Assembly (NCBI GenBank): GCA_964469335.1
Contig: CAYXYK010000004.1
Location: forward strand, 101,362 to 165,361
Direction of reading: 5' to 3'
DNA from: an uncultured Candidatus Saccharibacteria bacterium
Lineage (GTDB): Bacteria; Patescibacteriota; Minisyncoccia; Phycocordibacterales; UBA6899
DNA: 64,000 nucleotides
The position numbers and the translations under genes were made by a program. The notes below the pieces were generated by a model that was not told the origin of the DNA, searched no databases, and saw only the letters and a program-made list of their open reading frames with translations. Below are positions 6,719-36,600 of the stretch, piece by piece (within the stretch, counting starts at the first letter, position 1; the number at the start of each line of letters is the position of its first letter).

Positions 6719-6732
6719 TGTTCGCCTGCAAG
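6719..6732. promoter_or_regulatory. SOS (Cheo-type) LexA box CGAACAACTGTTCG overlapping the lexA promoter
   Basis: This is a perfect GAAC-N4-GTTC palindrome 23 nt upstream of the lexA ATG. On the coding strand it lies adjacent to a TATACT -10 element. Confidence 0.7.
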
Positions 6733-7066
6733 ATCCCACCTTGTCGCACCGCTTTTCTTGATAGAGAAGGGAGAATGTCGCGTACTATATTGTGCACATC
6801 TTGACCCTTCGGAGCGCGAGCGTACACTCATGACACTACTTGTCGCATACGCGAGAGATCGATGGCGATCTCTGGAAGTGAGGTGTGATCCCTCCACTGT
6901 GCCGCAACGGTAAAGCTGTCACTCGAAAGAGGAGAGAGATGAGTCCGGTCAGCAAGTAGGTATTTCTTCCGAGCAGAAGCGCACTCATCATCTTGGGTGA
7001 CAAAAGGGAAAACAACCCGTGCTTCCAACTCAGAAGGGCGGTTTTCTTTTATTTACATAATCGACT

Positions 7067-11468: not shown

Positions 11469-11515
11469 TTCCTGAGGTGGATAACGCATCTCAGTTGATT
11501 TGTTATACTGTTCCC

Positions 11516-13358: not shown

Positions 13359-13373
13359 TTATCCTGTGGATAA
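13359..13373. promoter_or_regulatory. palindromic pair of DnaA-box-like motifs TTATCCtgtGGATAA
   Basis: TGTGGATAA is the exact reverse complement of the TTATCCACA DnaA box, and it overlaps an inverted TTATCCTGT. It lies in an AT-rich intergenic region ~120 nt upstream of the operon starting at 13492. Confidence 0.3.
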
Positions 13374-13491
13374 TTGACAGGACATTCTGTTGATTGTCTG
13401 GGGATAACTTTCAATATTTCCTTATTTTCCAAGATAAAATTGGAATATCGACCCTCGAGATTCCCACAGTCTCGAGCTTCGTGGCGTTCCC

Positions 13492-13950
13492 ATGACCATT
13501 GATGAAAAGAAGTTAGAAGGGTACATCACACTCAAAGAGGCGAGTGAGCTGTTCGGCTATTCGCCCGACTACATCGGACAGCTGATCAGAAAGGGAAAGA
13601 TCGAGGGCAAGCAGGTCTATGCCAATGTCGCGTGGATGACCACGAAGAATTCACTCGACGAGTATCTTTCGCGTGAGCGCGGCGTCGCACAGTCTACCGA
13701 AAGAGCTCCATTCTTCGAACGTACGATGCGCGTCCTCCTCCGTGACGAAACGGTCCGTATCACAAAATGGATGCTGACTGCACTCATTCCTGTACTCGTC
13801 ATCCTTGCGATGCTCGAGTTCTATTTCATCTCCATTTCGATCGACCGCAAACTCACGCTGGATGCACAGCACCGACTCGAAAGAGAGATGCTCGTCGCAG
13901 GTGTTAGCGTTGCGGATACTAACGCGGAATATTTCAGCTATGAGAAATAA
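13492..13950 (+). CDS. membrane-anchored HTH (excisionase/MerR-like HTH_17) DNA-binding protein
   Basis: An N-terminal HTH (ITLKEASELFGYSPDYIGQLIRKGKIEGKQV) is followed by one TM (LTALIPVLVILAMLEFYFI). Confidence 0.55.
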   Translation: MTIDEKKLEGYITLKEASELFGYSPDYIGQLIRKGKIEGKQVYANVAWMTTKNSLDEYLSRERGVAQSTERAPFFERTMRVLLRDETVRITKWMLTALIPVLVILAMLEFYFISISIDRKLTLDAQHRLEREMLVAGVSVADTNAEYFSYEK

Positions 13951-15610
13951 CGACGCACAACACATTGTCCGCCTTGCTCGTTCGGAGCCCGAGCGCACCG
14001 TACTTTCAGCCGTGCATATTGCTCGTGTTTCCGAGCAAAACGAAACACACGAAGTATTCTCGAGCTTCGCGCTTTCGCGCGGTATACTCGGCAAATTCGT
14101 CACAGTCCTGCTGCTTCCGATGATCTTCATCTACCCGCTCGCGCCAGCGTATGCCGCCGACGAATCAACCGCTGCTTCCTCCACGCCGGAGCAAGTTCCT
14201 ACTGAGATCGCCGAGACTCCTCCCGTGACCGACTCACTCAGCTCGGATCTTGGCAGTGCACTCTCGGGTGCCGCTGCAGCGGTCGCTGATCTCTTCGTCG
14301 GAGGTGAGACATCCTCGACATCGGAAGAGATGGCGACTACCACTCCAGACACCCTCCCCGCCACCGATGACACTGCAACAACGTCAGAAGGCATGACTTT
14401 GCTTGACGACACTGCGTCCTCGACCGACAGCGGCTCTCTTGCAACGAGTACACCTTCGGATTCTGATGCGTCGACCACTCCGGCAATCCCGAGTGGAAGC
14501 AGTTCGAGCGATGAGTTCGCTTCAAGTACTTCCTCAGCATCCTCGACCGATGACATCCTCGACACTGCATCCTCCACCGAAGAATCAGTCACCCCGTCGA
14601 AGAGCGCACAGGAGATTGCGGCCGAGATGCTGCGCGAGAAAGAGGATTCGATGCGCGCGTCGATCAGAAAAGAAGTCGAAGATGAATTCACAAAAGGTTG
14701 TGTTTCGCTCGACACAACCGGCTATTACTGTCTCAAAGACAGACCGAACAGCGGAGAGAGTCTCACGCCGTCGAATGTCATCACAGATGTCACATCCCGG
14801 CCGGATGCATCGGGAGAGTGGAAGCAGATCTTCATTACGCGCGGAGGGATAGAGGAGCAACTGACACACTTCAGCTGGGACAATGCATTTCCAGCGACCG
14901 ATGTCTCCGGCAAGTCCGTCGTTTGGCAGGGGAACGTGAATGGTCGTTGGCAGATATTCTATGCGACCATCAGCGCGAGTGGAACTCCCTCGATAATGGA
15001 GGTCACACATTCGAACGAGAGTAATTTCAACCCTAAGGTCGACGGCGACGACGTTGTCTGGCAGGGATGGGTCGACGGCAACTGGGAGATATTCCTTGCA
15101 GAGCATCTCACTCCCGAAAACTATCTTGCTTCGACCACTTTACCGATCGAGAACAAACTGCTTGCCATTGATAACAGCTGGAAGGTCACCCGTGTCACGA
15201 CGAATTCGGGGCACGATATGTTCCCGTCTGTCGCTGGCGGGCTCACGACTTGGCAGTCATTCCAGGACAATGCATGGAATGTCTATGTCTACAGCATGAA
15301 GACCGGCACCACACAGAAGATCTCAAAAAGTGGCGAGAAGAGCGAGCAGCCGCGCTTCGCCATTACTTGGGATGAGCGGACCACCGAAGGGAACACCCGC
15401 ATGGTCGGCTACGACATTGCAAGCGGCAAGACCATCGACCTCACCGAAGAGGCACGCCGGGTCAATGATGATAAACCGTATACACCGACCGCTCCGATTA
15501 CCCAGCCGGACCAGGCCGCATTACCGATCAGTGGCTCCGGCACCAGCACTTCTGCAAAGAGTGAGGGGGACGCGAACGGCACCAGTACTCCTAACGGTTT
15601 GGATATATGA
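13940..15610 (+). CDS. membrane-anchored protein with acidic Ser/Thr/Asp-rich linker and C-terminal TolB-like beta-propeller repeats
   Basis: The start is the in-frame ATG (MRNNDAQ) overlapping the upstream stop by 11 nt. The protein has a TM (LLLPMIFIYPLAPAYA) and at least four repeats of D(G)..VVWQG.V.G.W.IF. Confidence 0.55.
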   Translation: MRNNDAQHIVRLARSEPERTVLSAVHIARVSEQNETHEVFSSFALSRGILGKFVTVLLLPMIFIYPLAPAYAADESTAASSTPEQVPTEIAETPPVTDSLSSDLGSALSGAAAAVADLFVGGETSSTSEEMATTTPDTLPATDDTATTSEGMTLLDDTASSTDSGSLATSTPSDSDASTTPAIPSGSSSSDEFASSTSSASSTDDILDTASSTEESVTPSKSAQEIAAEMLREKEDSMRASIRKEVEDEFTKGCVSLDTTGYYCLKDRPNSGESLTPSNVITDVTSRPDASGEWKQIFITRGGIEEQLTHFSWDNAFPATDVSGKSVVWQGNVNGRWQIFYATISASGTPSIMEVTHSNESNFNPKVDGDDVVWQGWVDGNWEIFLAEHLTPENYLASTTLPIENKLLAIDNSWKVTRVTTNSGHDMFPSVAGGLTTWQSFQDNAWNVYVYSMKTGTTQKISKSGEKSEQPRFAITWDERTTEGNTRMVGYDIASGKTIDLTEEARRVNDDKPYTPTAPITQPDQAALPISGSGTSTSAKSEGDANGTSTPNGLDI

Positions 15611-18600
15611 CGCGAATGAGTTTCAAGATCCTTAGGTTGATCGGAAAAAAAGTGGGAGTCGGCATGATCATGCTCTCGACCGTGTTCTACAGCTTCGGTG
15701 GGCTTGATCTCTATCTCGGGCTCACTACTCCGTTCGCCCCCAAGAAAGCAGACGCCGCATACACTGGCAAGCAGCTTCGTACCATAGAATACATTCTTGG
15801 AAATGGTAGCGAGAACACCGCGCGTGCCGCAGGGGTGCTTTCATATTTTGGCTCGGCAAATGCAACGACCAAAGCTGGTGCCGGACAAGAAGTCGTCATC
15901 ATCGAAGGCTCGGGCATCAGGGTCGTAAATGCGTATCTTGATGTTGCGTTCCAGATCACTGCATCGGCGAATCTCACAGGACTCGATCTGTTCTTTGATG
16001 CCTCGAGTTCAGCAATCACCGGTACCGACGTCCGCATCGATGAAGTCACCGCGAACACACCGTACATCGGATCAGGGTTGTCCGGCTATTTTCGTGGTAC
16101 ACATGAGGTTACCGCGTTCTTCGCAACAACGAGTGATGCGAATTGGAACGCAGGAGTCGGCGTTGTCGCCGCCGCGTCGACCACATTTTCCGCTGCCGCA
16201 AGCCGTGCGCTCACCACCATTAAACTTGTCATCACCTATGAAGAGGATGTATCCGCCGGTGCACACAGCGAAGTGAAGACCGTGCGCTTTCCGCTCGACT
16301 CGAACAATGGAACCGATACCGGCACCAGGCAAGCCGCATGTGGCGCCGGAACGACGTGCGGTTTCACCTACACGGCGGACATCCCTGACGCACTCGCCGA
16401 TGCCGACATCCTCGACGTTTATTTCGAGATCCACGGCATGGTCGACTCCGGTACGGCTTCGACACTGCAGCCGCAGATTTCAGGTGGGACGGCAGGACCC
16501 GCATATGCCTGGACCGAAGCGCGCGCCGATAACACCTCCGTGAACGTTACTTTTCGTCCGACAGTCGGAGCTCCGAATTTCACCCGCAACACCCCACAGA
16601 CGCTCAATATAGTGAATGGTACGGTCGCACTCGGTGCGCTCGGCGGAGAACTGGTCGTGACATACCGCTACTCGACCGGAGCGTCCGCTCAGACCGAGAC
16701 GGTGCGCTACTTTGTCGATCAGGATACGACCAACCCCGGCACTGCAACTTCGACGTTCGCGACAAGTACTGCGGCGATCGCGAATTCAGGTCGGTCGGTG
16801 AAGAGCATCTGGTATCGCGTACAGATCGCCCCGATCGCCGCAGCGAACATCAATATCGGCAGCGAAGTCGGGACTGCGACCAAGCGTTTCAAAACCTATG
16901 CGATCACCGGTACGAATCCGCGCTCGGGAGATTCGCCGACCATCATCCATGACCTGAGCGCGGATATCGGCAATTTCTGGAACACCTCCGTTGGACTCGG
17001 AGGGGAAACTCGTGCATCGGTCTCGAATGCCCCCGTAGGACTCGAAGCATATGTCACGTTCACCTGGGACGGCAACACCGCCTCGGATGTGACCAAGAGT
17101 GTCTCATTCAGCGGTGCACAGCAGGGTGTTTCCGCCGTGGCACAGCAATGGAACAACACCTCGGTGTTCATCGAGCTTCCCGAGACGGTCACGAAGACCT
17201 ATCGCAGTGCATATCTTTTGACCAACTACGATCATTCCAATGCCGGCACCATTACGGTGGGCACGGTCACCATCGGTGTGAACGGCTCGACGACCGCGAT
17301 CACCGAGAATGGTGATACTGAATCGTTCAACACGAGATACTATACGAAGATCGCCTCGACCACATTCTCGAATGGTGACCCGATCCTTTGGACTTCTCGC
17401 GCGATCGAGATCAATCAGCAGAAGAGTGTTGCCAACAGCGCCTATTTCGCGAATGAGGTGATCGTCACTTATGACGCTGCACTCGGCGGCAATGACATCA
17501 CGGTGACTCCGAAGCAGCTCCGTACTGTCGAATATGAGCTCGGCGGGGAGTCCGACAATGCGCAGCGTGCAAGCGGAGTGCGCTCGTATGTCGGCGCCGC
17601 ATGGTCGGCGAGCAAGGTTGGAGCGGGGACACGCTCGATCGTACTTAACGGCAGTAATATCAGGGTCGTCAACGCATATCTCGAATTCGGCTTCATTATC
17701 GCTTCCTCCTCTAACCTCACCGGCCTCGATGTCTACCTCGATGCAGGCGGTTCGTCGTCTGCGGGCACTGATGTCCCAGTCGCTGAGGCGGTCGGAGTAT
17801 CCATCCGTTCAACGACCGGACTCACCGGTTATGTCCGCGGCAATCATGATGTCACCGCGCTCTTCGATCGCCAAAGTGATGCACAGTGGTCATCCGGAGT
17901 CGCCGTCGTCGCATCAGCTTCGACCACACTCGCACTCGGCAATCGCACGCTCTCGACGATGCGCCTCATCATCACCTATGAGTCCGACTATTCGCTCGTT
18001 GCACACACCGAGACCAAGACCGTGCGTTTCCCGCTCGACTCGACCGCCGGTACCGACACCGGTACCAAGCAGACCGCATGTGCGATCTCAGCGGTCTGCG
18101 GATTCAGCTATACCGCGAACATCCCCGATGCGGCCGCGGACGCTGACATCCTCGATGTCTATTTCGATATGCATGCGGAAGTGAACTCCGCCGCCGCAGG
18201 ATCGTTCGATTTCCAGATCACCTCGATGCCGACCCCGAGTCAGGCATATGCCTGGGTTGAGACGAATACCGATGACAACACCGTCAATGTCATCTATCGC
18301 CCGGCGGTCAGTGGAACCGCATTCCAGCGCAACACCGCGCAGACGCTCAATATCAATAATGGACCGGTCGCCTTGAATGCGCTCGGCGGAGAACTGGTCG
18401 TGACATACCGCTACTCGACCGGCTCGACGGCGCAGACCGAGACGGTGCGCTATTTCGAGGATCAGCGTACGACCGCCCCGGGTACGACCCGTAACAATTT
18501 CGCCACCATCACCCCGACCATCTCGAACGGTTCGCTTTCGGTGAAGAACATCTGGTACAAGGTGCATGTCGCCCCTGTTGCCGCGACCAATATGACCATC

Positions 18601-20889
18601 TTCGGGAGGGTTGGTACCTCGACCGAAAAATCGAAAGTTTTCACCTTCGCCGCGACCAACCCGCGTGCAGGGGATACCCCGACGGTCATCTATGACATGA
18701 GCGCGGACATCGGGAACTTCTGGACCTCGACCACGACGCTTGCCGGCGCGGCTCAGTTCTCCGCCGCGAACTCCGGCACTCCTCCTGCGGTCGAAGCGTA
18801 CATCACCTATACGTGGAACGGTTCGCTCGGAGGTACCACCACGCGCACCGTACTCTACTCGGGAGCGCAGCAGGGAGTCACCAATCTCCTTGGTGCCTGG
18901 AACAACAAAGACATGCATGTCGAACTACCGGAAACGGTGACCAAGACATTCCGCAGTGCATATTTCGAGACGACGCACTTGCACTCGAATGCGGCGACCA
19001 CCATCACCATCAGTACGCTCACGTTCGCCGAGAACGGTGTCGCCTCGACGGTCGCCGAGAACGGTGATACCGAAGCGTACAATGCGGTGTATTTCAATCC
19101 GATCGCATCGTCGACATTCTCTTCGGGCGATACGATCAATTGGACGAAACGTTCGCTTGAGGTCAGCAATGCGCGAAACGTCGCGAACTATAGCTATTGG
19201 AACAACGTGCTCGTGGTCACCTACGACGCCGCTCAGGAGTACAAATTCCCGACCTTCACCCAGAATGCGTTCCGATTCTATGCTGACAATGCCGCGATCA
19301 AGCCGACCGATGCTTGGCCTTCCGGTGTGGTCGACCTCGGCGAGAACACCGAGATCACCGCTGCAGACTCACCGCCCGGCAACGGGAGCAACCTCAGGCT
19401 CCGCATGTCGCTCACTGTCGCGACCACCACCATGCTTGCGTCGTCGACCCAGTTCAAATTGCAATACGGCGTACGTACCAGTACCTGCGGAGCGGTCGCC
19501 TCATGGGCGGACCTTGGCGCGCCGGGCTCAGGGGCACAGTGGCGCGGGTTCAATGCGGCTCCGGCTGACGGCTCGAACATCTCCACGAGTTCACCGATGG
19601 CGGGAGAGCTCCTGCTCTCGGTCTCCGATCGTGCCGGTCTTTATCAGGAGTCGAACAACACGGTGTTCAATCCGTTCGCGACCGCGGTCGGAGAAGATGT
19701 CGAGTATGACTGGAACATCCAGAACAACAATGCCGCCACCGACACACCATATTGTTTCCGGATGACGAAGGTAGACGGAACGGCGTTCAATGATTACTCC
19801 GCATCGTATCCGACGGTGCGCACGGCGGGGTATACTGCCGAGTCGAAGAACTGGCGTTGGTACGATGACGAGAACAATGAGACCCCGACTTCGCCGATGG
19901 CGATCGAGAATACCGCTCCGACGAACGTCGTCACCGAGAATATCATCAAGCTGCGCGTGACGCTGAATGAGACGGGAGGTTCCAACGGCGTAAACCAGAA
20001 GTTCATGCTGCAGTACTCCGAGTGGGGAGACTTCTCAAGAGGGGTGACCGACCTTGTCGGCACGTCGACTTGTGTGACCAATGTTATCTGGTGCTACGGC
20101 GACGGTACCGACCTCGACGACAGCGCCATCTCGACCTTGCTGCTCTCTGATTCTGCGGCAAAGGGGAGACACAACGAGGCGGCGACCACGACGTCTACCT
20201 CAGGTCCGCTCGGTTCCACTGCGACCGAATACGAATTCACCATAAAGCATGCCGGCGCCCGGGTGAACACTACCTATTTCTTCCGATTGTGGGACGTGAA
20301 TCATGCTCGCCCGGTTCCGCTCGGGTCCGGCGAGAGCTATCCTTCGCTCTCCACTCAAGGTGCGACACTCTCATTCACCGTCTCGGGTCTTGCTTCGACC
20401 ACGGTTACGGGTGGAGTCACCACTGACGTCGACACCACCGCGTCGACGATACCGTTCGGAACGATACAAGTGGGCGGACCGGGTACGGTAGCGGCACAGC
20501 GCCTCACCGTTTCGACTGATGCGACCGAAGGATATCAAGTGTTCGTGCGCAGTAACGGCGACCTGGCAAATGCGCTCGCCGACGACATCCCTCCGGTCAC
20601 CGGCACCAACAGTGCTCCGTCCGCGTGGAGTGTCGGGTGTGACACTGCTGCCGACGGGTGCTACGGCTACCATGCCACGGACGGCACGCTCGCGGGAGGA
20701 TCGATCCGTTTCCTCGTCGATGACACATATGCACGTTTCTCCAGCACGACACTCGAAGAGGTCATGTACAACTCAGGACCGGTCACCGCCGACACCGCCG
20801 ACATCATCTGGAGACTCGAAGCGCACATCACCCAACCTGCGGGAGCGTATACGACCAGTGCACAATATATCGTTGTCCCCATCTTCTAA
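15607..20889 (+). CDS. giant (1760 aa) secreted surface protein with duplicated ~580-aa module and WxL-like C-terminal domain
   Basis: The gene has an ATGA start/stop overlap with the upstream gene. The protein has an N-terminal TM/signal and two tandem homologous modules. Its C-terminal region is homologous to modules of the 6224-aa protein and to the C-terminus of the 24009 gene (TFTVSG ... W ... IWRL ... YIVVPIF). Confidence 0.8.
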   Translation: MTRMSFKILRLIGKKVGVGMIMLSTVFYSFGGLDLYLGLTTPFAPKKADAAYTGKQLRTIEYILGNGSENTARAAGVLSYFGSANATTKAGAGQEVVIIEGSGIRVVNAYLDVAFQITASANLTGLDLFFDASSSAITGTDVRIDEVTANTPYIGSGLSGYFRGTHEVTAFFATTSDANWNAGVGVVAAASTTFSAAASRALTTIKLVITYEEDVSAGAHSEVKTVRFPLDSNNGTDTGTRQAACGAGTTCGFTYTADIPDALADADILDVYFEIHGMVDSGTASTLQPQISGGTAGPAYAWTEARADNTSVNVTFRPTVGAPNFTRNTPQTLNIVNGTVALGALGGELVVTYRYSTGASAQTETVRYFVDQDTTNPGTATSTFATSTAAIANSGRSVKSIWYRVQIAPIAAANINIGSEVGTATKRFKTYAITGTNPRSGDSPTIIHDLSADIGNFWNTSVGLGGETRASVSNAPVGLEAYVTFTWDGNTASDVTKSVSFSGAQQGVSAVAQQWNNTSVFIELPETVTKTYRSAYLLTNYDHSNAGTITVGTVTIGVNGSTTAITENGDTESFNTRYYTKIASTTFSNGDPILWTSRAIEINQQKSVANSAYFANEVIVTYDAALGGNDITVTPKQLRTVEYELGGESDNAQRASGVRSYVGAAWSASKVGAGTRSIVLNGSNIRVVNAYLEFGFIIASSSNLTGLDVYLDAGGSSSAGTDVPVAEAVGVSIRSTTGLTGYVRGNHDVTALFDRQSDAQWSSGVAVVASASTTLALGNRTLSTMRLIITYESDYSLVAHTETKTVRFPLDSTAGTDTGTKQTACAISAVCGFSYTANIPDAAADADILDVYFDMHAEVNSAAAGSFDFQITSMPTPSQAYAWVETNTDDNTVNVIYRPAVSGTAFQRNTAQTLNINNGPVALNALGGELVVTYRYSTGSTAQTETVRYFEDQRTTAPGTTRNNFATITPTISNGSLSVKNIWYKVHVAPVAATNMTIFGRVGTSTEKSKVFTFAATNPRAGDTPTVIYDMSADIGNFWTSTTTLAGAAQFSAANSGTPPAVEAYITYTWNGSLGGTTTRTVLYSGAQQGVTNLLGAWNNKDMHVELPETVTKTFRSAYFETTHLHSNAATTITISTLTFAENGVASTVAENGDTEAYNAVYFNPIASSTFSSGDTINWTKRSLEVSNARNVANYSYWNNVLVVTYDAAQEYKFPTFTQNAFRFYADNAAIKPTDAWPSGVVDLGENTEITAADSPPGNGSNLRLRMSLTVATTTMLASSTQFKLQYGVRTSTCGAVASWADLGAPGSGAQWRGFNAAPADGSNISTSSPMAGELLLSVSDRAGLYQESNNTVFNPFATAVGEDVEYDWNIQNNNAATDTPYCFRMTKVDGTAFNDYSASYPTVRTAGYTAESKNWRWYDDENNETPTSPMAIENTAPTNVVTENIIKLRVTLNETGGSNGVNQKFMLQYSEWGDFSRGVTDLVGTSTCVTNVIWCYGDGTDLDDSAISTLLLSDSAAKGRHNEAATTTSTSGPLGSTATEYEFTIKHAGARVNTTYFFRLWDVNHARPVPLGSGESYPSLSTQGATLSFTVSGLASTTVTGGVTTDVDTTASTIPFGTIQVGGPGTVAAQRLTVSTDATEGYQVFVRSNGDLANALADDIPPVTGTNSAPSAWSVGCDTAADGCYGYHATDGTLAGGSIRFLVDDTYARFSSTTLEEVMYNSGPVTADTADIIWRLEAHITQPAGAYTTSAQYIVVPIF
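15754..19245 (+). repeat. intragenic tandem duplication (2 x ~1.75 kb)
   Basis: Protein residues ~50-632 and ~633-1213 align collinearly (KQLRTIEY/KQLRTVEY ... GELVVTYRYSTG ... ETVRYF ... LPETVTKT.RSAY). Confidence 0.7.
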
Positions 20890-20897
20890 TCACCACC

Positions 20898-22145
20898 ATG
20901 ACATATAATAGAGAACAACTCATGAAACGCTTGAAGACGAGAGGACGTACTCGGTCCGTGCTTGCGGTGTGCGGCATGCTGCTCTTTACGTTGCCGAGTT
21001 TCGCTTTTGCCGCAAGCTCATTCACGGCTACTCCTGCGGTGATCGACGGCAAAGGGAAGGTGCGTGAGATCCTGCACTATAGTATGACCGTCGTGAATAC
21101 GACCAAGCATCTCGTGACTGTCTATCCGTGGGTCACCGACATCGATACTACCGAAGGGAATTCTGGTTCGAGCGATCTCGCCGGGACGCACGAAAAGGAA
21201 CTTTCGGAGTCACTCGCGCGCTGGATCGAAGTCACTCGCGGCTCGGTCGACCTGCTCCCCGGTGAGCAAAAAGACGTGCCAATCACCATCCAGATCAACC
21301 TCAATGCGAAGCCGGGGGTTTATCATTCCGCCATCCACCTCTCTGCGGGAGGTACACGTCCCGACGCAGAAGCGAACAAGGCCGATACGATGGACGTGCT
21401 TGTGAATATTGAAGTTCTCGATGATATCAACGAGCGACTGCAGCTCAACACCTTCGTTCCTTCGAAGGGGGTATTTGCCAACGAGACTGCTTCTTTCAAT
21501 TACCATATCGAGAACATCGGCAATCGCGGGGAGGTGCCGCACGGCAAGATACGCATCTACGACAAAAGCGGGCGTGAAGTTGCCTCCGTTGATGCCAATC
21601 AGGACGCAAAACGACTTGAGCCGTCATCGAAGTTGATGCTCTCCTCGGTCTGGGCATCAGGGAACAGTTTCGGCCGCTACAAGGCGATGCTCGATCTCGA
21701 GTATGGCGGCCGTGGCACACTCCAAGATACCGTATACTTCTGGGTCATTCCATGGAAGAAATTGCTTGGCATGTTCGTCTCACTCATCGTGCTGTGTGTC
21801 GCAGCCGCCATCGTACTGCACTCATACGGTCAGTCACGTCGCCGCGCACTCGCCGCCGAGACTTCAGAGGGTGGGTGGAGGCTTCCGTGGGGGCGCGATG
21901 AAAGTGAAGAAGAGGATGAAGAGTGGGAGGAAGTCGCCGTGCATCGCGCACGTGCAGTGAAGGAGCTCCGCGAAGTTGAACCTCCCCCTCCTGTCCATAC
22001 CCGTCTCCGCTCCGAGATCTACCACGGAGAGGAAGCTACGCATCTCTCGAATATGCCGAAAGCGGATTTATCCTCGCATAAGGTCATTCTCGGGAAGCGT
22101 GAATCACCGCCCCCGCCTCGGACGCATATCGTGAACCTCAAATAA
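20898..22145 (+). CDS. CscA-like (DUF916/DUF3324-like) cell-surface protein, C-terminal TM anchor
   Basis: The protein has a signal peptide, two beta-rich domains, a C-terminal TM (FWVIPWKKLLGMFVSLIVLCVAAAIVL) and a charged tail. An alternative start at 20922 is preceded by TATAATAGAG. The family assignment rests on architecture and motif resemblance only. Confidence 0.55.
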   Translation: MTYNREQLMKRLKTRGRTRSVLAVCGMLLFTLPSFAFAASSFTATPAVIDGKGKVREILHYSMTVVNTTKHLVTVYPWVTDIDTTEGNSGSSDLAGTHEKELSESLARWIEVTRGSVDLLPGEQKDVPITIQINLNAKPGVYHSAIHLSAGGTRPDAEANKADTMDVLVNIEVLDDINERLQLNTFVPSKGVFANETASFNYHIENIGNRGEVPHGKIRIYDKSGREVASVDANQDAKRLEPSSKLMLSSVWASGNSFGRYKAMLDLEYGGRGTLQDTVYFWVIPWKKLLGMFVSLIVLCVAAAIVLHSYGQSRRRALAAETSEGGWRLPWGRDESEEEDEEWEEVAVHRARAVKELREVEPPPPVHTRLRSEIYHGEEATHLSNMPKADLSSHKVILGKRESPPPPRTHIVNLK

Positions 22146-22146
22146 G

Positions 22147-23454
22147 ATGAAAAGATCCGGCCCACACCAATTCATGTTCATCCTGATCTCGCTTCTTGCG
22201 ATGGTACTTCCGTTTGGAGTCATTGCCGCAGACGAAAGCTCACTCACGATCACAGTCACACCGCCATTGTTCCAGGTTTCTCAGCCGGCCGGCACTGATT
22301 GGCGCAGTCAACTTCGACTGGTCAACAGCAACAATTATGATATTTCCATCACGGTGACTGCGCAGGATTTCCATCCGGACGGAGAGACAGGAAATGCGGT
22401 GTTTGAAGAAGGGGAGAAGGGGACCCCGACGGACTCTCGACGCATGTCCGGTTGGATCGAGGTGCCACCGGGGCTGCTCACGATTAAGCGCGGCAGTACC
22501 GCAGAGATCCCATTTACGATACACGTTCCACCGAATGCTGACCCGGGCGGACATTACGGCGGGCTTCTGGTCAGTACTCGTCCAGGCGACACTGGAGCTG
22601 GGAGTGGCGCTGGTATCTCATCAGGCATTACCTCGCTCATCTTCCTTCGTGTTCCTGGTGACGTGGTGGAAAAGGGAAGTATCAGAGATTTTTATACTGA
22701 AAACAGTGTGATCGAATCCCCTGATGCACGTTTTGTGCTGCGGTTCGAGAATGAAGGGAATGTGCACATTGTTCCACAGGGAGAGATCGTCATCACCAAT
22801 ATGTGGGGGAAGGTCCGCGGCAAGGTAAGCATCAACGAGAGTAGTACCTTCGGCAATGTACTACCGGAGTCAACCAGAAAATTCGAGTTCAACTGGAAAG
22901 AGCTCGACCCGAGCCCATTGGAAGTCGGCCGCTATAAGGCCATTGCGACCATCGTCTATGGGGTTGAGGGTCGACAAACCGTGGAGCGCACAGTCTTTTT
23001 TTGGATCGTACCGTGGAAGCCAGTCGCCTCCATCCTCGGATCACTGTTCTTCTTCATTTGGTTCATTTCCTGGTCGCTCCGACGTTATATCAAGAAGGCG
23101 CTCATGATGGAGCGTGTCCGACTTGGGATGACTGAACAGGAATTTGTCGCATATCGTGGCGGGCCGAAACAGGAAAAGCCTCAGCAGCCTACCTTGACCT
23201 TTTCCGCACTCAAACAACCACTCCGTGCAGCATCACTCAACCTTTCGCAAGACCGGATGACCTCATCACCGTCAGTATCAACACAAAAAAGAAAGAAATT
23301 GAAACCCGGAGTTGTCGCAAAGTTGCGCGCGTATCGCCCGCTGATCATCTTCGTGCTCGTACTAGCAACAGGGATCTCACTCATCAGTTGGTATTTCGTA
23401 GAGGTGTTTCAGGATGAAAGGGCCTACCACGTCGAGCAGATCCGCCCGCGTTAG
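22147..23454 (+). CDS. CscA-like (DUF916/DUF3324-like) cell-surface protein paralog
   Basis: The architecture matches the 20898 gene (FFWIVPWKP + TM + basic tail), and the start is 1 nt after the upstream stop. Confidence 0.55.
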   Translation: MKRSGPHQFMFILISLLAMVLPFGVIAADESSLTITVTPPLFQVSQPAGTDWRSQLRLVNSNNYDISITVTAQDFHPDGETGNAVFEEGEKGTPTDSRRMSGWIEVPPGLLTIKRGSTAEIPFTIHVPPNADPGGHYGGLLVSTRPGDTGAGSGAGISSGITSLIFLRVPGDVVEKGSIRDFYTENSVIESPDARFVLRFENEGNVHIVPQGEIVITNMWGKVRGKVSINESSTFGNVLPESTRKFEFNWKELDPSPLEVGRYKAIATIVYGVEGRQTVERTVFFWIVPWKPVASILGSLFFFIWFISWSLRRYIKKALMMERVRLGMTEQEFVAYRGGPKQEKPQQPTLTFSALKQPLRAASLNLSQDRMTSSPSVSTQKRKKLKPGVVAKLRAYRPLIIFVLVLATGISLISWYFVEVFQDERAYHVEQIRPR

Positions 23455-23577
23455 AACTTTCAGAAATGGGAACCTTCTACTTGCAGGACCCCCCAGTGAT
23501 TCGGTCAACGTACTATGAGTACGTCTTCCTCATCACTTTCCCCGCGCCTTGAATTTTCCTCATTTCTGAAAGTTCTC
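23453..23577 (+). repeat. structured intergenic element, copy B (terminal inverted repeat + conserved core GTCAACGTACTATGAGTACGTCTTCCTCAT)
   Basis: The 18-nt arms AGAACTTTCAGAAATGgg / CTCATTTCTGAAAGTTCT flank a core that is near-identical to 33299..33328. The inner stem gtgat/atcac covaries with atgcaat/attgcat in copy A. Confidence 0.45.
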
Positions 23578-23703
23578 TTTGTAAATATTTAGAGTTGATG
23601 CTTACTCTGTGCGCCACGAACTTTGCTCAGTTTCGCAGCTTCTATACACGTTGATGACGCCTCAAATTTCATCTATATATAGAGTGATAAAAGTAGGCGA
23701 AAC

Positions 23704-23770
23704 TGTGGATAAGTAGAGCCATATTCTTGGTTATCCACCTCTATTTGGCTCTTATCCACAGTTATCCACT
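23704..23770. promoter_or_regulatory. cluster of four DnaA-box-like 9-mers
   Basis: The boxes are TGTGGATAA (23704-12, inverted), TTATCCACC (23731-39), TTATCCACA (23752-60) and TTATCCACT (23762-70). Two are perfect matches to TTATCCACA and two differ by one base. An AT-rich tract lies upstream and a TATAAT at 23809 downstream. Confidence 0.45.
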
Positions 23771-24008
23771 TTGGGCGCACCATTTTCCCACAGCTAAGAT
23801 ATAATGTTTGATAGGTGCGAAGACCATCAACTCTGCGAGTATCGATGATCAGATCACCATCAGGACAATCATCCCAATTGTTGTCAGAATCAAAATAGAT
23901 TTTCCATTGTATACGCTCTCGCCTTGCCCCACACGGCGAAAGCACTGAAGATTACTTGTCGTTTAATATTCAGTCTCTCACAGCCATTATTTGTTTTAGC
24001 TTAGTTCT

Positions 24009-25166
24009 ATGAACTATCTTAGTTCTTTCAAACAGCTTTCACGCGCGAAGCAGATTGCTGTGCTGCTCATTGTGAGCACGTTTACATGGGCTGTCGGAGT
24101 TCCAACATTTTTTGCTACCGCTTCTGCGGCGCAACTCTCGCTCGTTAGTGCGACCGCATCGTCGTCTGTCCCTGCAGCAGTCACCAACATGACACTGCGC
24201 TACACCTCGACTACTACAGTTTCGACAGGTCAGACTATCGCGATCCAGTTCAGTCCTGGCCATAATGGTGGCACTGACGAATACAGTCTCGCATCCCTCA
24301 CCGTCAACGATGTTGTCGGACAGGCGGGTGTGACGGTCATTACCGCAGCTTGTGGTGCAGTCACCGCTAACCAGGTCTCAATCTCTGGTGGTATCGCCAA
24401 CGCTGCCGGAAACCGAACCGTCACCCTTACTGCATGTGGTGCAGTCGCTGCGCAGCAGATCACCATCGGATTCATCAACAATCATCTCGTCAATCCGACC
24501 ACGACCGGTTCATACAAGATCACCATCGGCGGCACTCAGACTGACTCAGGAACCGCAATGACCGCCATCCTCAACCAGGTCACCGTCACTGCTTCAGTCG
24601 ACACAACCCTTACCTTCACTGTTTCGGGTGTCGCAGCAGGTCAAAGCATCAACAACGAGCAAGTTTCGACAACTTCGACCGCAGTTGCGATCGGATTCGG
24701 CACACTCGCTTCGGGTACCCCGGTCGTCGCCGCACAGGACCTCACCGTGGCAACAAATGCGCAGAATGGATTCATCGTTACTGTACATGAGGACCAGAAT
24801 CTCCTCTCGGCGAACGGTGCTGATATCGACCTCTTCCAAGACGGAAATGCCGTTGCGACACCGATCGCTTGGGCGACTCCGACAGCAGTGCTTGGAACAG
24901 AAGCTACATATGGCCATATGGGTATCACTAGTAACGACACTGACCTCAATGCCAACGAGTTCTTCTCAGGATCGGTCATCAAATGGGCAGGTAATTTCTA
25001 CCCGACCACCACTCGTACCATCTTCTCAAATACCGGTCCGGCTGATGGTGTAACTCAGAATATCGGTAGAGCACGTGTCGGTTATAAGATCCTCGTCTCC
25101 AACCTCCAGGAAGCCGCAACGGATTATACCAACCACCTCATCTACGTTTGCACCCCGACATTCTAA
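24009..25166 (+). CDS. secreted surface protein with WxL-like C-terminal domain (paralog of the giant-protein C-termini)
   Basis: The protein has a signal/TM, an Ala/Thr-rich beta domain, and a C-terminal ~170 aa (TLTFTVSGVAAG ... PIAW ... VIKW ... YVCTPTF) homologous to the C-terminus of the 1760-aa protein. Confidence 0.6.
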   Translation: MNYLSSFKQLSRAKQIAVLLIVSTFTWAVGVPTFFATASAAQLSLVSATASSSVPAAVTNMTLRYTSTTTVSTGQTIAIQFSPGHNGGTDEYSLASLTVNDVVGQAGVTVITAACGAVTANQVSISGGIANAAGNRTVTLTACGAVAAQQITIGFINNHLVNPTTTGSYKITIGGTQTDSGTAMTAILNQVTVTASVDTTLTFTVSGVAAGQSINNEQVSTTSTAVAIGFGTLASGTPVVAAQDLTVATNAQNGFIVTVHEDQNLLSANGADIDLFQDGNAVATPIAWATPTAVLGTEATYGHMGITSNDTDLNANEFFSGSVIKWAGNFYPTTTRTIFSNTGPADGVTQNIGRARVGYKILVSNLQEAATDYTNHLIYVCTPTF

Positions 25167-25466: not shown

Positions 25467-26525
25467 ATGCAACCTTACAAAAAATTCTTAGCCTTCACCG
25501 TACTCTTCGCAGCGCTCCTCGTTGCGCTTCCATCCGAAGTGAGTGCGCAAGGGAAAGTGAGCTTCAGGCTTTCCCCGACCACCATCGAAGACAAGGTGGA
25601 CCCGGGAGCTGACCGAGATTTCGCGCTCAATATCGAGAATCAAGGCGATGCGACCGCAACACTCTACCCGTCGGCGCAGAACATCACCGGAATCGGTCCT
25701 GACCTTCACCCGATATATTCCTCTGCAAAGGATACAGAAGGATACGCACTTGCGTCGTGGATCACCTATCAAGAGAAAGAGCTTGTTGTTCGTCCTCATG
25801 AACAAAAGACCCTCCACTTCACCGTTCATTTCCCAAAGGATGCTCATCCGGGATCGCATATGGCCGGTGTGTTTTTGAGTGACAAACCTTCAGATGCCAC
25901 CCAGAGCGGATCATCAATCGGCTTCCAGATCGGAGCGATAGTGAATTTCCAGGTCGCAGGGGAGATCATTGAGGATACTCAGATCAGAGAGTTTTACACG
26001 ACAAAGGCGGTGTACAGCAATGCGGATGTGGGATTCACCACTAAGCTTGAGAACAGGGGCAATATCCTGTCTCGCCCGCACGGCCTTATCGACATCACCA
26101 ACATGTTCGGAAAGAAAGTCGCTTCCATTCCGGTAAATGACAATGGCGGCGGTATCTTCCCGAACGGTGTGCGTGAGTTCTCGAGTGTATGGAAGTCCGA
26201 CGATATCCAGCTTGGACGCTATGATGCCGTCGTTGCGCTTGCAGTCGAAGGACAGAATGGAACTCAGACGATCTCGCGTGTACTTCAGTTCTGGATCATG
26301 CCGATGAACATCATTGGACCTATCGTCGGAGGTCTGCTTTTTCTCATCATCCTTGTCTACGTCATCATCAGGCTCTACATCAGGAGTCAGCTCGCCGGAA
26401 TTTCCCGTCCGCGTGGTGCGTCACGCCGCTCTGATCCAGGACTATCGAAGAGTGCTGCGATCGTGATAGCACTGCTTGTCGCGATCATCATCGGATTCGT
26501 TATTTTATTCTTTTACTTCGGGTAA
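25467..26525 (+). CDS. CscA-like (DUF916/DUF3324-like) cell-surface protein paralog
   Basis: The protein has a signal peptide, two beta domains, QFWIMPMNIIGP + TM and a basic tail. It aligns collinearly with the 20898, 22147 and 60879 proteins. Confidence 0.55.
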   Translation: MQPYKKFLAFTVLFAALLVALPSEVSAQGKVSFRLSPTTIEDKVDPGADRDFALNIENQGDATATLYPSAQNITGIGPDLHPIYSSAKDTEGYALASWITYQEKELVVRPHEQKTLHFTVHFPKDAHPGSHMAGVFLSDKPSDATQSGSSIGFQIGAIVNFQVAGEIIEDTQIREFYTTKAVYSNADVGFTTKLENRGNILSRPHGLIDITNMFGKKVASIPVNDNGGGIFPNGVREFSSVWKSDDIQLGRYDAVVALAVEGQNGTQTISRVLQFWIMPMNIIGPIVGGLLFLIILVYVIIRLYIRSQLAGISRPRGASRRSDPGLSKSAAIVIALLVAIIIGFVILFFYFG

Positions 26526-26527
26526 AA

Positions 26528-26648
26528 GCTGTTTCAAATTTAGCGATTATCTTCAGCAAAACAACCACCCGCGACTCACCTTACAATAAGTAAGGCTCGT
26601 CTAGCGAGTGGTTGTTTTGTTTCGCTTCTCATCTAAATTTGAAACAGG
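26528..26648 (+). repeat. long nested-hairpin element immediately 3' of stop codon
   Basis: The outer inverted repeat is GCTGTTTCAAATTTAG / CTAAATTTGAAACAGG. The middle stem is CAAAACAACCAC / GTGGTTGTTTTG. The centre is CCTTACAataaGTAAGG. Confidence 0.45.
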
Positions 26649-26706
26649 TTCGTAAGCTGGCGTCAGTAATGTGAAATAGATTTACTGTTTATGTTACGAT
26701 GAAGGC

Positions 26707-30903: not shown

Positions 30904-31026
30904 CAGTTCGAAATTGAGCGAAATACTTCGTTGAAACGCTGTTGAGCGCCTCGCCTTACACGGAGTGAGGCTCGGCCTGCTCTACAGCGTTTCGCCTTGT
31001 ACTTCATCTCAATTTTGAACTGCTAG
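30899..31026 (+). repeat. long nested-hairpin element overlapping the stop codon
   Basis: The outer inverted repeat is GCTAGCAGTTCGAAATTGAG / CTCAATTTTGAACTGCTAG. The centre is CCTTACAcggaGTGAGG, the same core as at 26578. Confidence 0.45.
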
Positions 31027-31224
31027 ATGATAGCTCGCGTCTCGGGTGGGGGGCGCACAAATGAGTTACAAACACCACATACAAAAAATTACTCTGTGAA
31101 TCCACTGGTTCTCCACAATTGTTTTGCAACTATGTTGTGCAAGTTGATTGAAGGGACGTATAATGTAGGTAATAGTTCGTGTGCGTCATGGAGGGACGCA
31201 TTATAAATAATTTGTACTTTTATC

Positions 31225-31731
31225 ATGAGTTCGTTCTTACAAAAACTGAAAGGAAAAGGTGTCGGAGTGACGGAAGACCACACAGCCGAGCCTGTGCATT
31301 CACAGAAATCCGATGTTCCCTCGGGTGTGACGCAACTGCCGGTCGACGTGCAGCAGAGTGATACCGAGATCATCATCTACGCGCAAGTCCCGGGTACCGA
31401 GATCAAGGACCTTGATGTGTCGATCGAGGGTGACAATGATGTCATCACCATCCAGGGTACATCGCGCAGACCCTCGGAGCTTGTTGGCGGTAAATCCGAA
31501 GAGGAAAGTGCCGTCATCATCAAGCAGGGTCGCGTCGCAGGACACGAAGACTTCACGCTCGAAGAATGCGCGTGGGGGAAATTTTTCCGCCAGATCATCC
31601 TTCCCCAAGAGGTTGATGCGGCATCAGCTCAGGCAAAAGTGAAAGATGGCGTGCTCGCGCTTCATCTTCCTCTCAAAGGTCATGCTACCAACAAGATGCG
31701 CATGCATGTCGAGCGCGTCGATTCTGTATAA
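31225..31731 (+). CDS. Hsp20/alpha-crystallin family small heat-shock protein
   Basis: The protein has the ACD core (DVQQSDTEIIIYAQVPGTEIKDLDVSIEGDNDVITIQG ... FRQIILPQEVDAASAQAKVKDGVLALHLPL). Confidence 0.85.
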   Translation: MSSFLQKLKGKGVGVTEDHTAEPVHSQKSDVPSGVTQLPVDVQQSDTEIIIYAQVPGTEIKDLDVSIEGDNDVITIQGTSRRPSELVGGKSEEESAVIIKQGRVAGHEDFTLEECAWGKFFRQIILPQEVDAASAQAKVKDGVLALHLPLKGHATNKMRMHVERVDSV

Positions 31732-33261: not shown

Positions 33262-33367
33262 CTGGCAAATTTCGTCGTTGCGGGTCCCATGCAATTCAGT
33301 CAACGTACTGTGAGTAGGTCTTCTTCATTGCATTTCCCGCGCCTCGAACTTTATCCAGTTATGAAAG
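33252..33367 (+). repeat. structured intergenic element, copy A (core GTCAACGTACTGTGAGTAGGTCTTCTTCAT)
   Basis: The flanking inverted repeat is CTTTCGTAACTGGCAAATTTCG / CGAACTTTATCCAGTTATGAAAG. The inner stems are gcggg/cccgc and atgcaat/attgcat. The core differs from copy B at only 3 of 30 positions. Confidence 0.45.
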
Positions 33368-33645
33368 AACTTGAATAAGTATTTAAAATTTTCCAATCAA
33401 AATTTGAGGGAAAAATCAATAATTTTTTGCACATTTTTTCTGAAAAAACGCTTAGATGGTAAGAATTTTTTCAAAGTGCAGTGAGATGCAAAAAAATCTG
33501 TGGACAACTCGTGTTGCTTCCACGAAAGCCCTCAGTTGAGCCATGGTTTAAGAGCGATTTTAGCCCTATTTGAAGCCGTATTTTGGCTTTTTTCTGGTAA
33601 AATTAAGCCTAGCCAATCCTTTTTGGAGGAGGGGTGTGTATTTTC

Positions 33646-36600
33646 ATGTACCGACGCCTACGAACCTATGCACGAAGAGTGATTCACGCGTTTTCAACGC
33701 GCACGAGAGTCGCCTCAACCCTACTTTTTCTGGTACTCAGCGGATGGCTTGTATCGCAGTTCGTTCTTGCCCAGAAGGAATTGAATGTCTACATCTTTCC
33801 GTCCGCAGTGACGAGTGATGGATGGAACGACGATATTCAATCGCTCAGCCAGGATCTTTCTCCTGACGCAACGCTTGCGAATTTCACTACACTCAATTCA
33901 GCATCCGTTTCGTTCGGGTCTCTGGGCGCGGCTCCTGTCGCGACCTCATCGGTTCCCGGCGTGCCCACACCATCAGAAAGCGATCTGAGTACTTCGCTTG
34001 AGAACGTACTTCCTACTACCCCGTCTGTGGTGCCTACTGCACTCCCACTCAACGGCAACGATGAGCCGATCCTCGTTCCTGCAGTGGGAGAGGCGACCAC
34101 ATCTTCGGTGATCAGTCTTCCTAATCCCTTCGTTCCTGTCACGCCGCTACCTGAGAGCATCACTGCCTCATCTGCACAATCACTAAATCTATTGCCGGAT
34201 ATTCTGACCGATTTATTTGGCGTGAAGAAAGTGCTTGCACAAGAGCATGCTTCAGCGACGCCCAATGTGAGTGTGTCCGAGACTACGACCCCTGTTGTGA
34301 TGAATCAGGAAGGAAATGCCAGTGCCACTTTGCCAACTGTACCGGAACCTTACGTCCCCACCCCGATGTCGGCTGATCCCTATTCTGTCGCTTCATGTAC
34401 GACACTGGGACTCACATGCCACCTCATGACCTTCGTCGGGTTCGGGCTCGGAGATGCCTTCTCATCCCACCCGCTCACTTCAGCGACACTTGAGCTTTCT
34501 GTTGCGGGTCGTTCAGAGCTTTCCGCCCTGCAGCATGACCGATTGTTGGTTCGTGTATTCCATGCAGGTCGTTGGGAATTCCTTGGCGAAACTGAGATCA
34601 AGGGTGAACTTTCGAATGCAAAACGCGGAGGCTACCTTTCGTATGATCTTCCTGAGATCGCTGATTGGAAAGACCTTTCGGACATGAAGGTTGTTGTTGA
34701 GTATGCGCGCGAAGGTGAAGGGAATGCATCGCTCCTCATCGACGGTGTGTGGGTGAATGCGAAATACGGTACTGATAGCATCTCCGCCGATGCGACACCT
34801 GAAGAGATCGCGCTCTCGCAGTCGAACGTACGCAGTACTTTGTTCGCAAAGGACGCAGAAGATCGAAAAGTGAGACGTGACATCCTTGATACTCCGGAAG
34901 GAAGGGAGATCGCGCTTATGCATGCGGATGAGCACGACGATGCGGACATCATCATCAAGACCGACAAAGAGATATATCGCACCCTCGGGAATACCTCTGC
35001 ATACTTCAATGTCACCAACCAAAGCGACAAGGAACAGGTCGTTCGGCTGCAGTTCCATTTTCCTGAGGGTGGCGGCGGAGTTGCATCATTGTCCCGCCTT
35101 TCTCGCTCAGTCCCGTACAAAGTAAGTAATCTGAAATACGATTCCGTCGGTTACTTCTGTGCAAGCGGATGGCAGAGCGCCTCGTCGACCGACACGAAAG
35201 GATTTACTTGTGTTGATATGAATGAGACCCGATCTTGTGATGCGCTCAACGACGATAAGACGAACTGTATCGTCAGTGGTGCGCGAGTCGGGCTCACAGA
35301 AGACATCGAATATCGTGACGGATGGGTTCCTAGCGCTCTTCTACAGGGCTCGTTCCGTGATGATGCGGGCATCTTCGCCAAGGCGATCGACCTCATTCTC
35401 GGTAAGTTGCCTTCGGGAGCGATCCCTCCTTCTGAACAGCCGGTCTCGTACATCGAGAATTCGGTACTTCTTCTCCCGGGGCAGACTGCATACCTTCGCG
35501 CAGATCTTGCGCTCCCACTCAATGGACGCGGGGATTTCTATATCGAGGGAGCAACGGAGAGCGGTGCGTACGGTCTCGTTCATGCCGCATGGGATGGTTC
35601 ATGGAACTACCGTGTGCCCGTTGATATCGATAACGAGAAAGTCGAGACTGAAGACTCGTATGCCGTCCCGGTGTCGCTCGACTCGCTTCCGCTCGCATTC
35701 TGGGACAGGGTCAACGCGGACGGCTCGGATGTCCGTTTCGTTGACGAGACCGGGACGCAGGAACTCCCGTACTGGCTCTCTTCGTGGAAATACGAAGACC
35801 GAAAAGCATTCGCCTGGGTGCGAATCCCGAAGACGAGCAATTCGACCACTACGCGCATCTATGTGTACTACGGTGATCATAGTGCCGCTTCCCGCTCGTC
35901 GCTCACTGCTCCGTTCCGTACCGATAGGCTCACTTCGCGCGCGGTGATCGCAGGCTCGAGTCAGCATGATATGACACTACTCGCAATCGCGCTCGATGAA
36001 GATACGCACATCCAAGCGGGGGAGCATGAGCCAGTCACTCTCAAGAAGGGAGAGACTGCACTCTTTGGGTCGCTCGCACCGGGCGATGTAGTCCAAGCTG
36101 ATGGGCCGATATCTCTTTCGCTTGAGTCGAGCGGTTCAGGTGCGACGGTCGTTCCATACGGATATACTGGCGGCAATTTCGTTATTCCGGGAATCGGCGG
36201 TGAGCGCATCCTTTCGATGACTGCCGTCGAAGATGGTGAGGTGCACACGGAGCTCAAGCGAGGGAGTGCTACTTCGACAACTCTCGATCCGATTGCAGGG
36301 ACGATCGTTTCGGATACGGTGGATCTCGACAGTTCGATCCGTGTCGATGCGGCAAGTGATGTCATGGCACTCCTTTCTGCGGGGGATGGCACGCGCCTTA
36401 CCCCGCTTTATCCGTCGACCGATGAACCGCTTTATGGTTTCATGCTCGGAAAGACAGTGGTTGGATTCGGAACAGACGGATCGACGATGAAGGCGGTGTG
36501 TGCCGGAGGTGCGGTCAAATCCGCCGACGGACGTAGAGACGGCATGATGACCGTCCTCGATCATTGTCAAAGTTCCGTTCTTCCTTCGCTCGCCGACGCA

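Follow-up and report, generated by a model that had tools for sequence, protein, structure and literature searches.

A conserved cluster of DnaA-box-type sites phased to the promoter of a secreted-protein gene in Patescibacteria

One intergenic region of the window (by which we mean the whole 64-kb stretch of DNA that was analysed) contains a group of closely spaced 9-mers of the DnaA-box type, TTATCCACA. Such a group might belong to an origin of replication, might titrate DnaA, or might be the operator of a promoter, and in the last case it is also necessary to ask which protein reads it. We approached these questions by analysing the region itself, by comparing it with related loci and by locating other promoters that carry the same box.

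The box cluster and its intergenic region

Four TTATCCACA-type 9-mers lie within 67 bp at 23704-23770, two of them perfect and two with one mismatch. Their positions are exactly those given in the initial annotation, and to them we add a fifth, weaker box (box 4; Table 1). The starts of the four head-to-tail boxes, boxes 1 to 4, are spaced by 21, 10 and 22 bp. Over the whole window, there are 17 matches with at most one mismatch versus 9.9 expected, and none of 100 shuffles reached 17. The clustering is also unmatched by shuffled sequences. No 67-bp span had more than 2 matches in 300 dinucleotide shuffles of the window, compared to the 4 observed, and shuffling the intergenic region alone never yielded 4 matches (0 of 2000). 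A chance origin of the cluster is ruled out by these shuffles of the window and of the intergenic region. Exact TTATCCAC 8-mers are similarly concentrated, as seven of the nine in the window sit in three intergenic clusters (at 13.37, 23.7 and 58.8 kb).

Table 1. Coordinates of the box cluster, its surroundings and other box-bearing promoters in the window.
Feature	Position	Strand	Description
Extended hairpin	23453-23576	+	124 nt; directly after the upstream operon; 16-nt perfect outer arms
Box R	23704-23712	-	perfect TTATCCACA, reverse-oriented; anchors the array at its upstream end
Box 1	23731-23739	+	TTATCCACC, one mismatch; 60 nt 5' of the -10
Box 2	23752-23760	+	perfect TTATCCACA; 39 nt 5' of the -10; conserved distal high-consensus box
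Box 3	23762-23770	+	TTATCCACT, one mismatch; 29 nt 5' of the -10; 1 nt after box 2
Box 4	23784-23792	+	degenerate TTTCCCACA, two mismatches; 7 nt 5' of the -10, inside the promoter spacer
Putative -10, TATAAT	23800-23805	+	at a fixed distance from the boxes across loci; placed by consensus only
Putative 5' leader	23806-24008	+	about 200 nt; short conserved C/A-rich motifs CCATCCCA, ATTTCCCAnTTT and TCTCACAG..ATTAT
Candidate regulated gene	24009-25166	+	385-aa secreted protein with two Ig-like domains
Second cluster	13365-13407	-	TGTGGATAA at 13365-13373 and TGGGGATAA at 13399-13407; the latter is 27 nt before TAAAAT (13435-13440), upstream of the HTH_17+TM gene (13492-13950)
Third cluster	58775-58839	-	TGTGGATAA, TGTGTATAA, GGTGGATAA and CGTGTATAA; starts spaced by 22, 22 and 11 nt; TGTGTATAA is 28 nt before TATAAT (58834-58839), upstream of the gene for a 623-aa membrane protein (58856-60727)
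Single box	31109-31164	+	TTCTCCACA, 41 nt before TATAAT (31159-31164), upstream of hsp20 (31225-31731)
Two boxes	60802-60860	+	GTATCCACC and TCATCCACA, the latter 33 nt before TACAAT (60855-60860); 347-aa secreted protein downstream

By our ORF calls, the intergenic region extends over 23455-24008. It is therefore 554 bp long, rather than the 430 bp initially given, and has a GC content of 0.42 versus about 0.53 for the window. From left to right, the region consists of a hairpin, a non-conserved spacer with an AT-rich tract, the box array, the hexamer TATAAT, a leader and the ATG. The AT-rich tract beside the boxes had been noted initially and is indeed present at 23673-23696, but it is not conserved in one of the related loci described below (L009), despite the same layout of boxes in that locus. 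The hairpin (RNA MFE of -47.6 kcal/mol, z = -7.3) has a homologous copy at approximately 33262-33375 and is likely a terminator or a repeated structured element that forms the left bound of the promoter region. Extended hairpins of about 125 nt are found right after the ends of operons at four places in the window, in two homologous pairs (these two, 26526-26650 and 30904-31025), and could be either terminators of large size or copies of a structured element that is repeated.

The putative -10 and transcription start were placed by consensus. No canonical -35 is located 16-18 nt 5' of the TATAAT, and a consensus scan did not find any TTGACA-type promoter on the + strand of the region. The short C/A-rich motifs of the leader are kept in orthologous leaders too, and there is no Shine-Dalgarno sequence. 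Alignment with MAFFT followed by RNAalifold revealed no consensus RNA structure in the leader, given that the alignment was poor, and a structured leader RNA 3' of the promoter is thus not supported. A known RNA or tRNA was also rejected, because Rfam and ARAGORN gave no match in the region; nor were tRNA or Rfam matches found in the rest of the window.

Some additional repeats overlap the array. Box R and box 2 lie within a 13-nt perfect inverted repeat (23701-23763; AACTGTGGATAAG / CTTATCCACAGTT), and a nested repeat, AGAGCCATAT / ATTTGGCTCT, occupies both sides of box 1. A CCATAT motif at this place is seen again in two related loci (L009 and L014).

Genes on both sides of the region run in the same direction, as the initial annotation had stated. 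The gene downstream of the array encodes a 385-aa protein that has a signal peptide visible in its translation and 403 homologues, and that matches no Pfam or NCBIfam family. Its predicted structure (pLDDT 83.7) has two Ig-like beta-sandwich domains, with a fold that resembles MSCRAMM adhesins, BslA, TasA and a WxLIP. The initial description of this gene as WxL-like was not upheld; a weak WxLIP-like match belongs to the next gene, at 25467-26525. Three paralogous WxLIP-like genes flank the gene for the 385-aa protein, and this synteny is conserved. The gene content of the window resembles that of Patescibacteria, with many ORFs without a family match, as well as cohesin and dockerin proteins. 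A single ORF at 33634-52308, following hsp20 and the gene for a cohesin-domain protein, encodes 6224 aa, and the window's response regulator showed a receiver domain only.

Conservation and phasing in related loci

The comparison drew on loci from related ultra-small bacteria (Paceibacteria), of which 78 are genomic and 80 metagenomic. The 78 loci come from a genome scan with alignment of homologues of the two-Ig protein (36-69% identity, with the best species representative at 69%); in CP060229.1, for example, the two-Ig locus is at 911.8-925.0 kb of 994.8 kb. The metagenomic loci (L087-L166) are a set collected around HTH_17 genes. Near-identical strain contigs (L001-L006) contain no footprinting information. 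In interpreting the numbers that follow, it is important to consider that orthologous promoters share descent, and that box counts are therefore not independent events.

Boxes with at most one mismatch occur at a density of 2.13/kb in the 730 bp 5' of the 78 orthologues, versus 0.24/kb in the rest of the loci; we estimated the chance rate at roughly 0.21/kb. In an unbiased, strand-specific count of 9-mers, the top rank goes to TTATCCACA, found in 32 of 72 upstream regions and 0 of 66 controls, followed by TTATCAACA. The upstream zones have 75 perfect boxes versus 20 elsewhere, and every one of the 29 multi-box clusters found is intergenic. Mismatches in upstream boxes cluster at positions 3 and 5, while positions 2, 4, 8 and 9 are almost never altered. 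Two variants recur, namely TTATCCCCA (22 cases) and TTATCAACA (13 cases), which are changed at positions 7 and 6, respectively.

Individual boxes of the window's array have counterparts in other loci. A reverse box at the place equivalent to box R is kept in L008, L009 and L014, the counterpart of box 1 in L009 is CTATCCACC, and the slot of box 4 holds TTTTCAACA or TTTTCCACA in orthologues. The gap that separates box 2 from the -10 recurs, at 39-40 nt, in L007, L008, L009, L020, L023, L024, L027, L028 and L032. The protein of L009 is 63% identical to that of the window, and this locus has the same box layout as the window with spacers that cannot be aligned. Given the complete divergence of the spacers, it is the boxes, together with their spacing, that selection has preserved. 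In other clades, a single box is kept, at 32 or 40 nt from the -10.

The distances between boxes and the -10 are strongly quantised. Among the 58 forward boxes that have an exact TATAAT at most 60 nt downstream, 56 have a gap of 6-9, 18-22, 29-32 or 39-43 nt. These gaps form a ladder with a step of about 10.5 bp, in which the boxes are arranged head to tail with a period of 10-11 bp, and their histogram has a peak at 7-8 nt, i.e., at the slot of box 4. The corresponding gaps in the window are 60, 39, 29 and 7 nt, in addition to the reverse anchor; reverse boxes in the TATAAT set of the two-Ig loci exhibit no comparable pattern. Full four-box head-to-tail arrays that abut the -10 are present in five loci (L010, L011, L012, L022 and L023), where the spacers are 1-3 bp and the arrays end 7-8 nt from the -10, e.g., TTATCCACT-a-CTATTCACA-ct-TTATCCACG-ca-TTATTCACA-N8-TATAAT in L011. 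Within such arrays, the most distal box usually has the best consensus and the proximal boxes are degenerate. Isolated single boxes at a fixed phase are found in L020, L027, L028, L059 and others.

Head-to-tail repeats of about 10-11 bp that abut or replace the -35 are a feature of direct-repeat activator operators, and this feature is present here. We also considered whether the box could itself be the -35 element of a sigma factor. This idea was rejected, since four phased slots are occupied and boxes additionally occur in reverse orientation at 26-28 nt. We are highly confident that the cluster is a conserved, phased promoter operator and not an origin.

Other promoters with the same box

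Phase-locked box promoters number 169 in all loci. With extra within-locus paralogues included, 71 of these precede members of the two-Ig family; 50 precede the membrane-anchored HTH_17 gene, 11 a membrane protein of approximately 630 aa, 10 hsp20 (each in a different locus), 5 a 485-aa family and 4 WxLIP-like genes. The remainder are singletons, one lexA among them. All three clusters of the window are conserved members of this regulon. For example, orthologous promoters of the ~630-aa protein, whose 623-aa representative in the window is encoded after a MacB/FtsX permease, carry TGTGTATAA (which is TTATACACA reversed) in nine further loci, L041 and L074 included, and its distance to a -10-like hexamer is 26-28 nt in the eight orthologous promoters that were counted. 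The cis-element, its conservation, its phasing and the membership of its regulon are thus seen directly in these loci.

At 11476-11509 of the window, a single reverse box, GGTGGATAA, lies 19 nt before a TATACT, just after the gene for an RRM-type RNA-binding protein and a terminator-like hairpin. It may represent a further promoter of the regulon. We also considered a duplicated promoter cassette or mobile element as the source of the recurring boxes. However, the promoter regions of the window share only the boxes, at 8-13 nt, and the lack of shared sequence beyond them implies that they are not copies of a cassette.

The gene that follows the second cluster encodes a putative transcription factor. 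This HTH_17+TM protein is 150 aa long, with an N-terminal Xis/BldC/MerR-like wHTH, one transmembrane helix and a conserved C-terminal ..YEK. Its gene heads a conserved operon of giant surface proteins (13492-23454 in the window; also L087-L166), in which the proteins encoded next always range from 500 to more than 1300 aa in size. The window has genes for 601- and 1760-aa proteins at this place and, after them, two WxLIP-like paralogues. The HTH is nearly invariant across homologues, and the HTH_17 domain superposes on BldC, Pukovnik Xis and RacA (target TM 0.62-0.76).

In the 80 metagenomic loci, a box precedes 63 of 76 HTH_17 homologues at a distance of at most 300 bp (3.96/kb versus 0.26/kb). 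The gaps between box and -10 in these promoters are 20-22, 30-32 and 39-42 nt for forward boxes and 26-27 nt for reverse boxes. Most loci in which K34 of the HTH is replaced by S or T are without boxes. In five loci (L104, L111, L113, L147 and L153), hsp20 is divergent from the HTH_17+TM gene, and each of the two genes has its own phase-locked box promoter. One clade (L101, L104, L110-L114, L129, L147 and L153) has a conserved (A)GTCAAA 3-4 nt after the forward box. The resulting composite, TTATCCACAGnnAGTCAAA, is about 11-12 nt from the -10, which a standard -35 does not explain.

HTH_17+TM genes carry a different motif in 74 of 77 loci. This motif, the palindrome ATCTCGA-N3-TCGAGAT, is located 3' of the -10 and 5' of the ATG and is usually present twice (13446-13460 and 13470-13484 in the window). 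None of the 45 controls contains it, two-Ig loci show no enrichment of it, and ten loci have the palindrome without a box. Its half-sites degenerate independently, with no compensating changes, which points to a DNA operator and not an RNA hairpin. The palindrome is probably the autoregulatory site of the membrane-anchored HTH_17+TM regulator.

Function of the cluster and candidate readers

The presence of four to five DnaA boxes beside an AT-rich tract is what might be expected of oriC or of a secondary origin. However, several observations make an origin extremely unlikely. The cumulative GC skew of the 64 kb decreases monotonically, from 0 to -1.7, with no extremum at 23.7 kb, and the + strand encodes the genes on both sides of the site and, between 7 and 63 kb, nearly all others. 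The initial remark that neither dnaA nor dnaN is nearby was confirmed: dnaA was not detected in the window by Pfam among the main ORFs or by tblastn (using E. coli and B. subtilis DnaA queries), and there was no DnaN-type Pfam match. Motif and tblastn scans also found no dnaA in 1.24 Mb of related loci. The AT-rich tract, as mentioned, is not conserved in L009. Finally, the window has at least three clusters and single loci such as L023 have two or three arrays, and the existence of several clusters argues against any unique element. We therefore reject oriC on the basis of skew, gene orientation, absence of dnaA and multiple copies. Multiple clusters would, on the other hand, suit a site that titrates or inactivates DnaA and so buffers the free protein, in the manner of datA or DBC, and by our arithmetic the density and quality of the boxes exceed the threshold for stable binding in B. 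subtilis. Yet such a site has no need for a fixed orientation or helical phase relative to a -10, whereas nearly all forward boxes are phase-locked, and the position of the boxes is conserved 5' of specific orthologous genes while the spacers diverge. A pure DnaA reservoir offers no explanation for the phase-locking, and we regard this possibility as very unlikely. Thus, from the initial annotation, which doubted an origin and suggested titration, regulation or an operator, the doubt and the operator of the downstream gene have held up, and pure titration has not.

The most likely reader of this operator is DnaA, acting as a transcription factor, and we put the chances of this at about even. 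The operator would then comprise five 9-bp DnaA-box-type sites in the promoter of the two-Ig gene at 24009, where four head-to-tail sites, all facing the same side of the helix, follow a reverse anchor and reach as far as 7 nt from the -10. DnaA would bind the consensus distal boxes first, and oligomerising ATP-DnaA would subsequently fill the weaker proximal boxes toward the -10. Phased binding at the distal sites would most plausibly activate a promoter that has no -35, and filling of box 4, in the spacer, could shut the promoter down. Activation is favoured by the lack of a -35 and by the smallest unit that is conserved, which consists of one box with its centre near -45 to -57. As to the sign of regulation, we consequently lean to activation from the distal sites, to which the spacer box may add repression. 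The same element would control a small regulon that is conserved across this group, namely the two-Ig gene and its paralogues, the HTH_17+TM gene, the gene for the ~630-aa membrane protein and hsp20.

In favour of DnaA, the motif is the canonical 9-mer, and the positions at which changes are chiefly tolerated, 3 and 5, are also the degenerate ones in the DnaA consensus TT(A/T)TNCACA. A protein able to bind as a monomer would account for single boxes at a fixed phase, whichever their orientation. Two hallmarks of non-origin DnaA-box clusters are seen, i.e., box density in an intergenic region and conservation by the same gene in relatives. In B. subtilis, stable binding of DnaA follows a rule, in which A is greater than 0.3 and at least four boxes match TTATNCACA with at most one mismatch (PMC2533591). 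Applying this rule with our own arithmetic, we obtain A of about 0.88 for the focal cluster (affinity sum 10, d 11.3), compared to the threshold of 0.3. Moreover, DnaA and DnaN are reported to be encoded in Paceibacterota genomes (bioRxiv 10.1101/2025.01.22.634366). Against DnaA, a regulon of surface proteins and hsp20 is atypical for this protein, and no replication genes were seen in the regulon, in loci that were chosen around surface and regulon genes. In addition, the positions that are altered in the recurrent variants TTATCCCCA and TTATCAACA, namely 7 and 6, are contacted by DnaA, and strict phasing to the -10, with arrays that replace the -35, is more typical of dedicated activators such as PhoB/PhoP, ToxR and BldC.

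These last points would be accommodated by the main rival of DnaA, a dedicated transcription factor whose 9-bp specificity matches that of the DnaA box and that reads the same operator. Such a factor would activate surface and stress genes in a class I/II-type manner, and it could even be a paralogue derived from domain IV of DnaA. Phase-locking and direct repeats in place of the -35 are established for the pho boxes of PhoB/PhoP and for BldC, the regulon is functionally coherent in consisting of surface proteins and hsp20, and the variants TTATCCCCA and TTATCAACA are retained selectively. Nevertheless, we consider such a factor somewhat unlikely, as no candidate was found, and the sole nearby transcription factor, the HTH_17+TM protein, has another operator. 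Canonical DnaA, even if such a factor exists, should bind the perfect consensus boxes anyway, and the tolerance at positions 3 and 5 is that of DnaA. The HTH_17+TM protein might itself bind the boxes as a head-to-tail multimer, as BldC or Xis would, and in this way regulate its own gene and the neighbouring surface genes. Consistent with this idea, boxes usually precede its gene, its almost invariant HTH has a BldC/Xis/RacA-like fold, its operon adjoins the two-Ig gene in the window, the gene is divergent from hsp20 in five loci, and loci with K34 replaced by S or T mostly do not have boxes. The palindrome is difficult to reconcile with this idea, however, as it provides the HTH_17+TM gene with an operator of its own, occurs without boxes in some loci and is unrelated to the boxes; recognition of both motifs by a single HTH would be unlikely. 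Given that the palindrome is the expected autoregulatory site, we judge it improbable that the HTH_17+TM protein is the reader of the boxes.

LexA was also rejected as a binder, because the window's lexA-like gene is without a box. On the - strand at 4839-6897, this gene, which encodes a LexA-like S24 peptidase with an unusually long N-terminus, is followed by a gene for a DinB-type Y-family polymerase; no DnaA-type box was found in the promoter of the lexA-like gene. A canonical lexA in L058 has three DnaA-type boxes in its promoter. For Patescibacteria, the reported LexA motif belongs to the Gram-positive GAAC-N4-GTTC type.

The closest described relatives of the element are the non-origin DnaA-box clusters of B. 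subtilis, which are found at sda, ywlC, yydA, vpr and other genes (Ishikawa et al. 2007, PMC2533591). Like the cluster in the window, these are intergenic, have four or more TTATNCACA-type boxes and are conserved among relatives; they span about 45-95 bp and adjoin genes whose transcription is modulated by DnaA. Unlike them, the boxes described here, which are putative DnaA sites, are arranged head to tail with a periodicity of 10-11 bp and are locked to the -10 at distances of 7-8, 19-21, 30 and 40 nt, and their targets are surface-protein operons and hsp20, conserved across a group of Patescibacteria. In the oriC of E. coli, arrays of low-affinity DnaA sites are anchored by R1 and R4 and are read by cooperative oligomers of ATP-DnaA. 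The architecture is similar here, in that a consensus anchor is followed by weaker boxes in the same orientation, 1-3 bp apart, but here it is the -10 of a promoter, and not a DNA unwinding element, at which the array ends, and the context is not that of an origin. The DnaA-control sites datA and DARS of E. coli (PMC10950094 and PMC8682772) resemble our cluster in being groups of DnaA boxes away from oriC. They work through the nucleotide state of DnaA, with a dependence on IHF or Fis. We saw nothing of this kind here, and the phasing to the promoter favours a transcriptional role. Finally, the operators of PhoB/PhoP (pho boxes), ToxR and BldC likewise have two to four head-to-tail repeats, spaced by about one helical turn, that abut the -10 without a -35. 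Unlike in those systems, the repeat unit here is the 9-bp DnaA box, and single and reverse boxes also occur at fixed distances. Our literature search found no description of Patescibacteria or Parcubacteria promoters, regulons or origins that involve DnaA boxes.

The occurrence of a 9-mer at quantised distances from the -10 amounts to a concrete cis-regulatory code for the main surface-protein promoters, at loci whose genes are the most likely to mediate attachment to a host. As a tentative generalisation, to which we assign a little less than even probability, DnaA might be the main regulator of the surface or host-contact apparatus and of hsp20 in Paceibacteria, and possibly in Patescibacteria more widely, by means of phased box arrays that replace the -35. 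If DnaA does read the boxes, they would define an unusually large and architecturally strict DnaA regulon that links replication status to the cell surface. In these bacteria, which otherwise have very few regulators, remodelling of the surface would then be directly coupled to the DnaA-ATP cycle. If another factor reads them, that regulator would share the recognition sequence of the initiator, and cross-talk at the origin would be expected. With either reader, annotation of promoters and prediction of regulon members in thousands of uncultured genomes can already make use of the motif.
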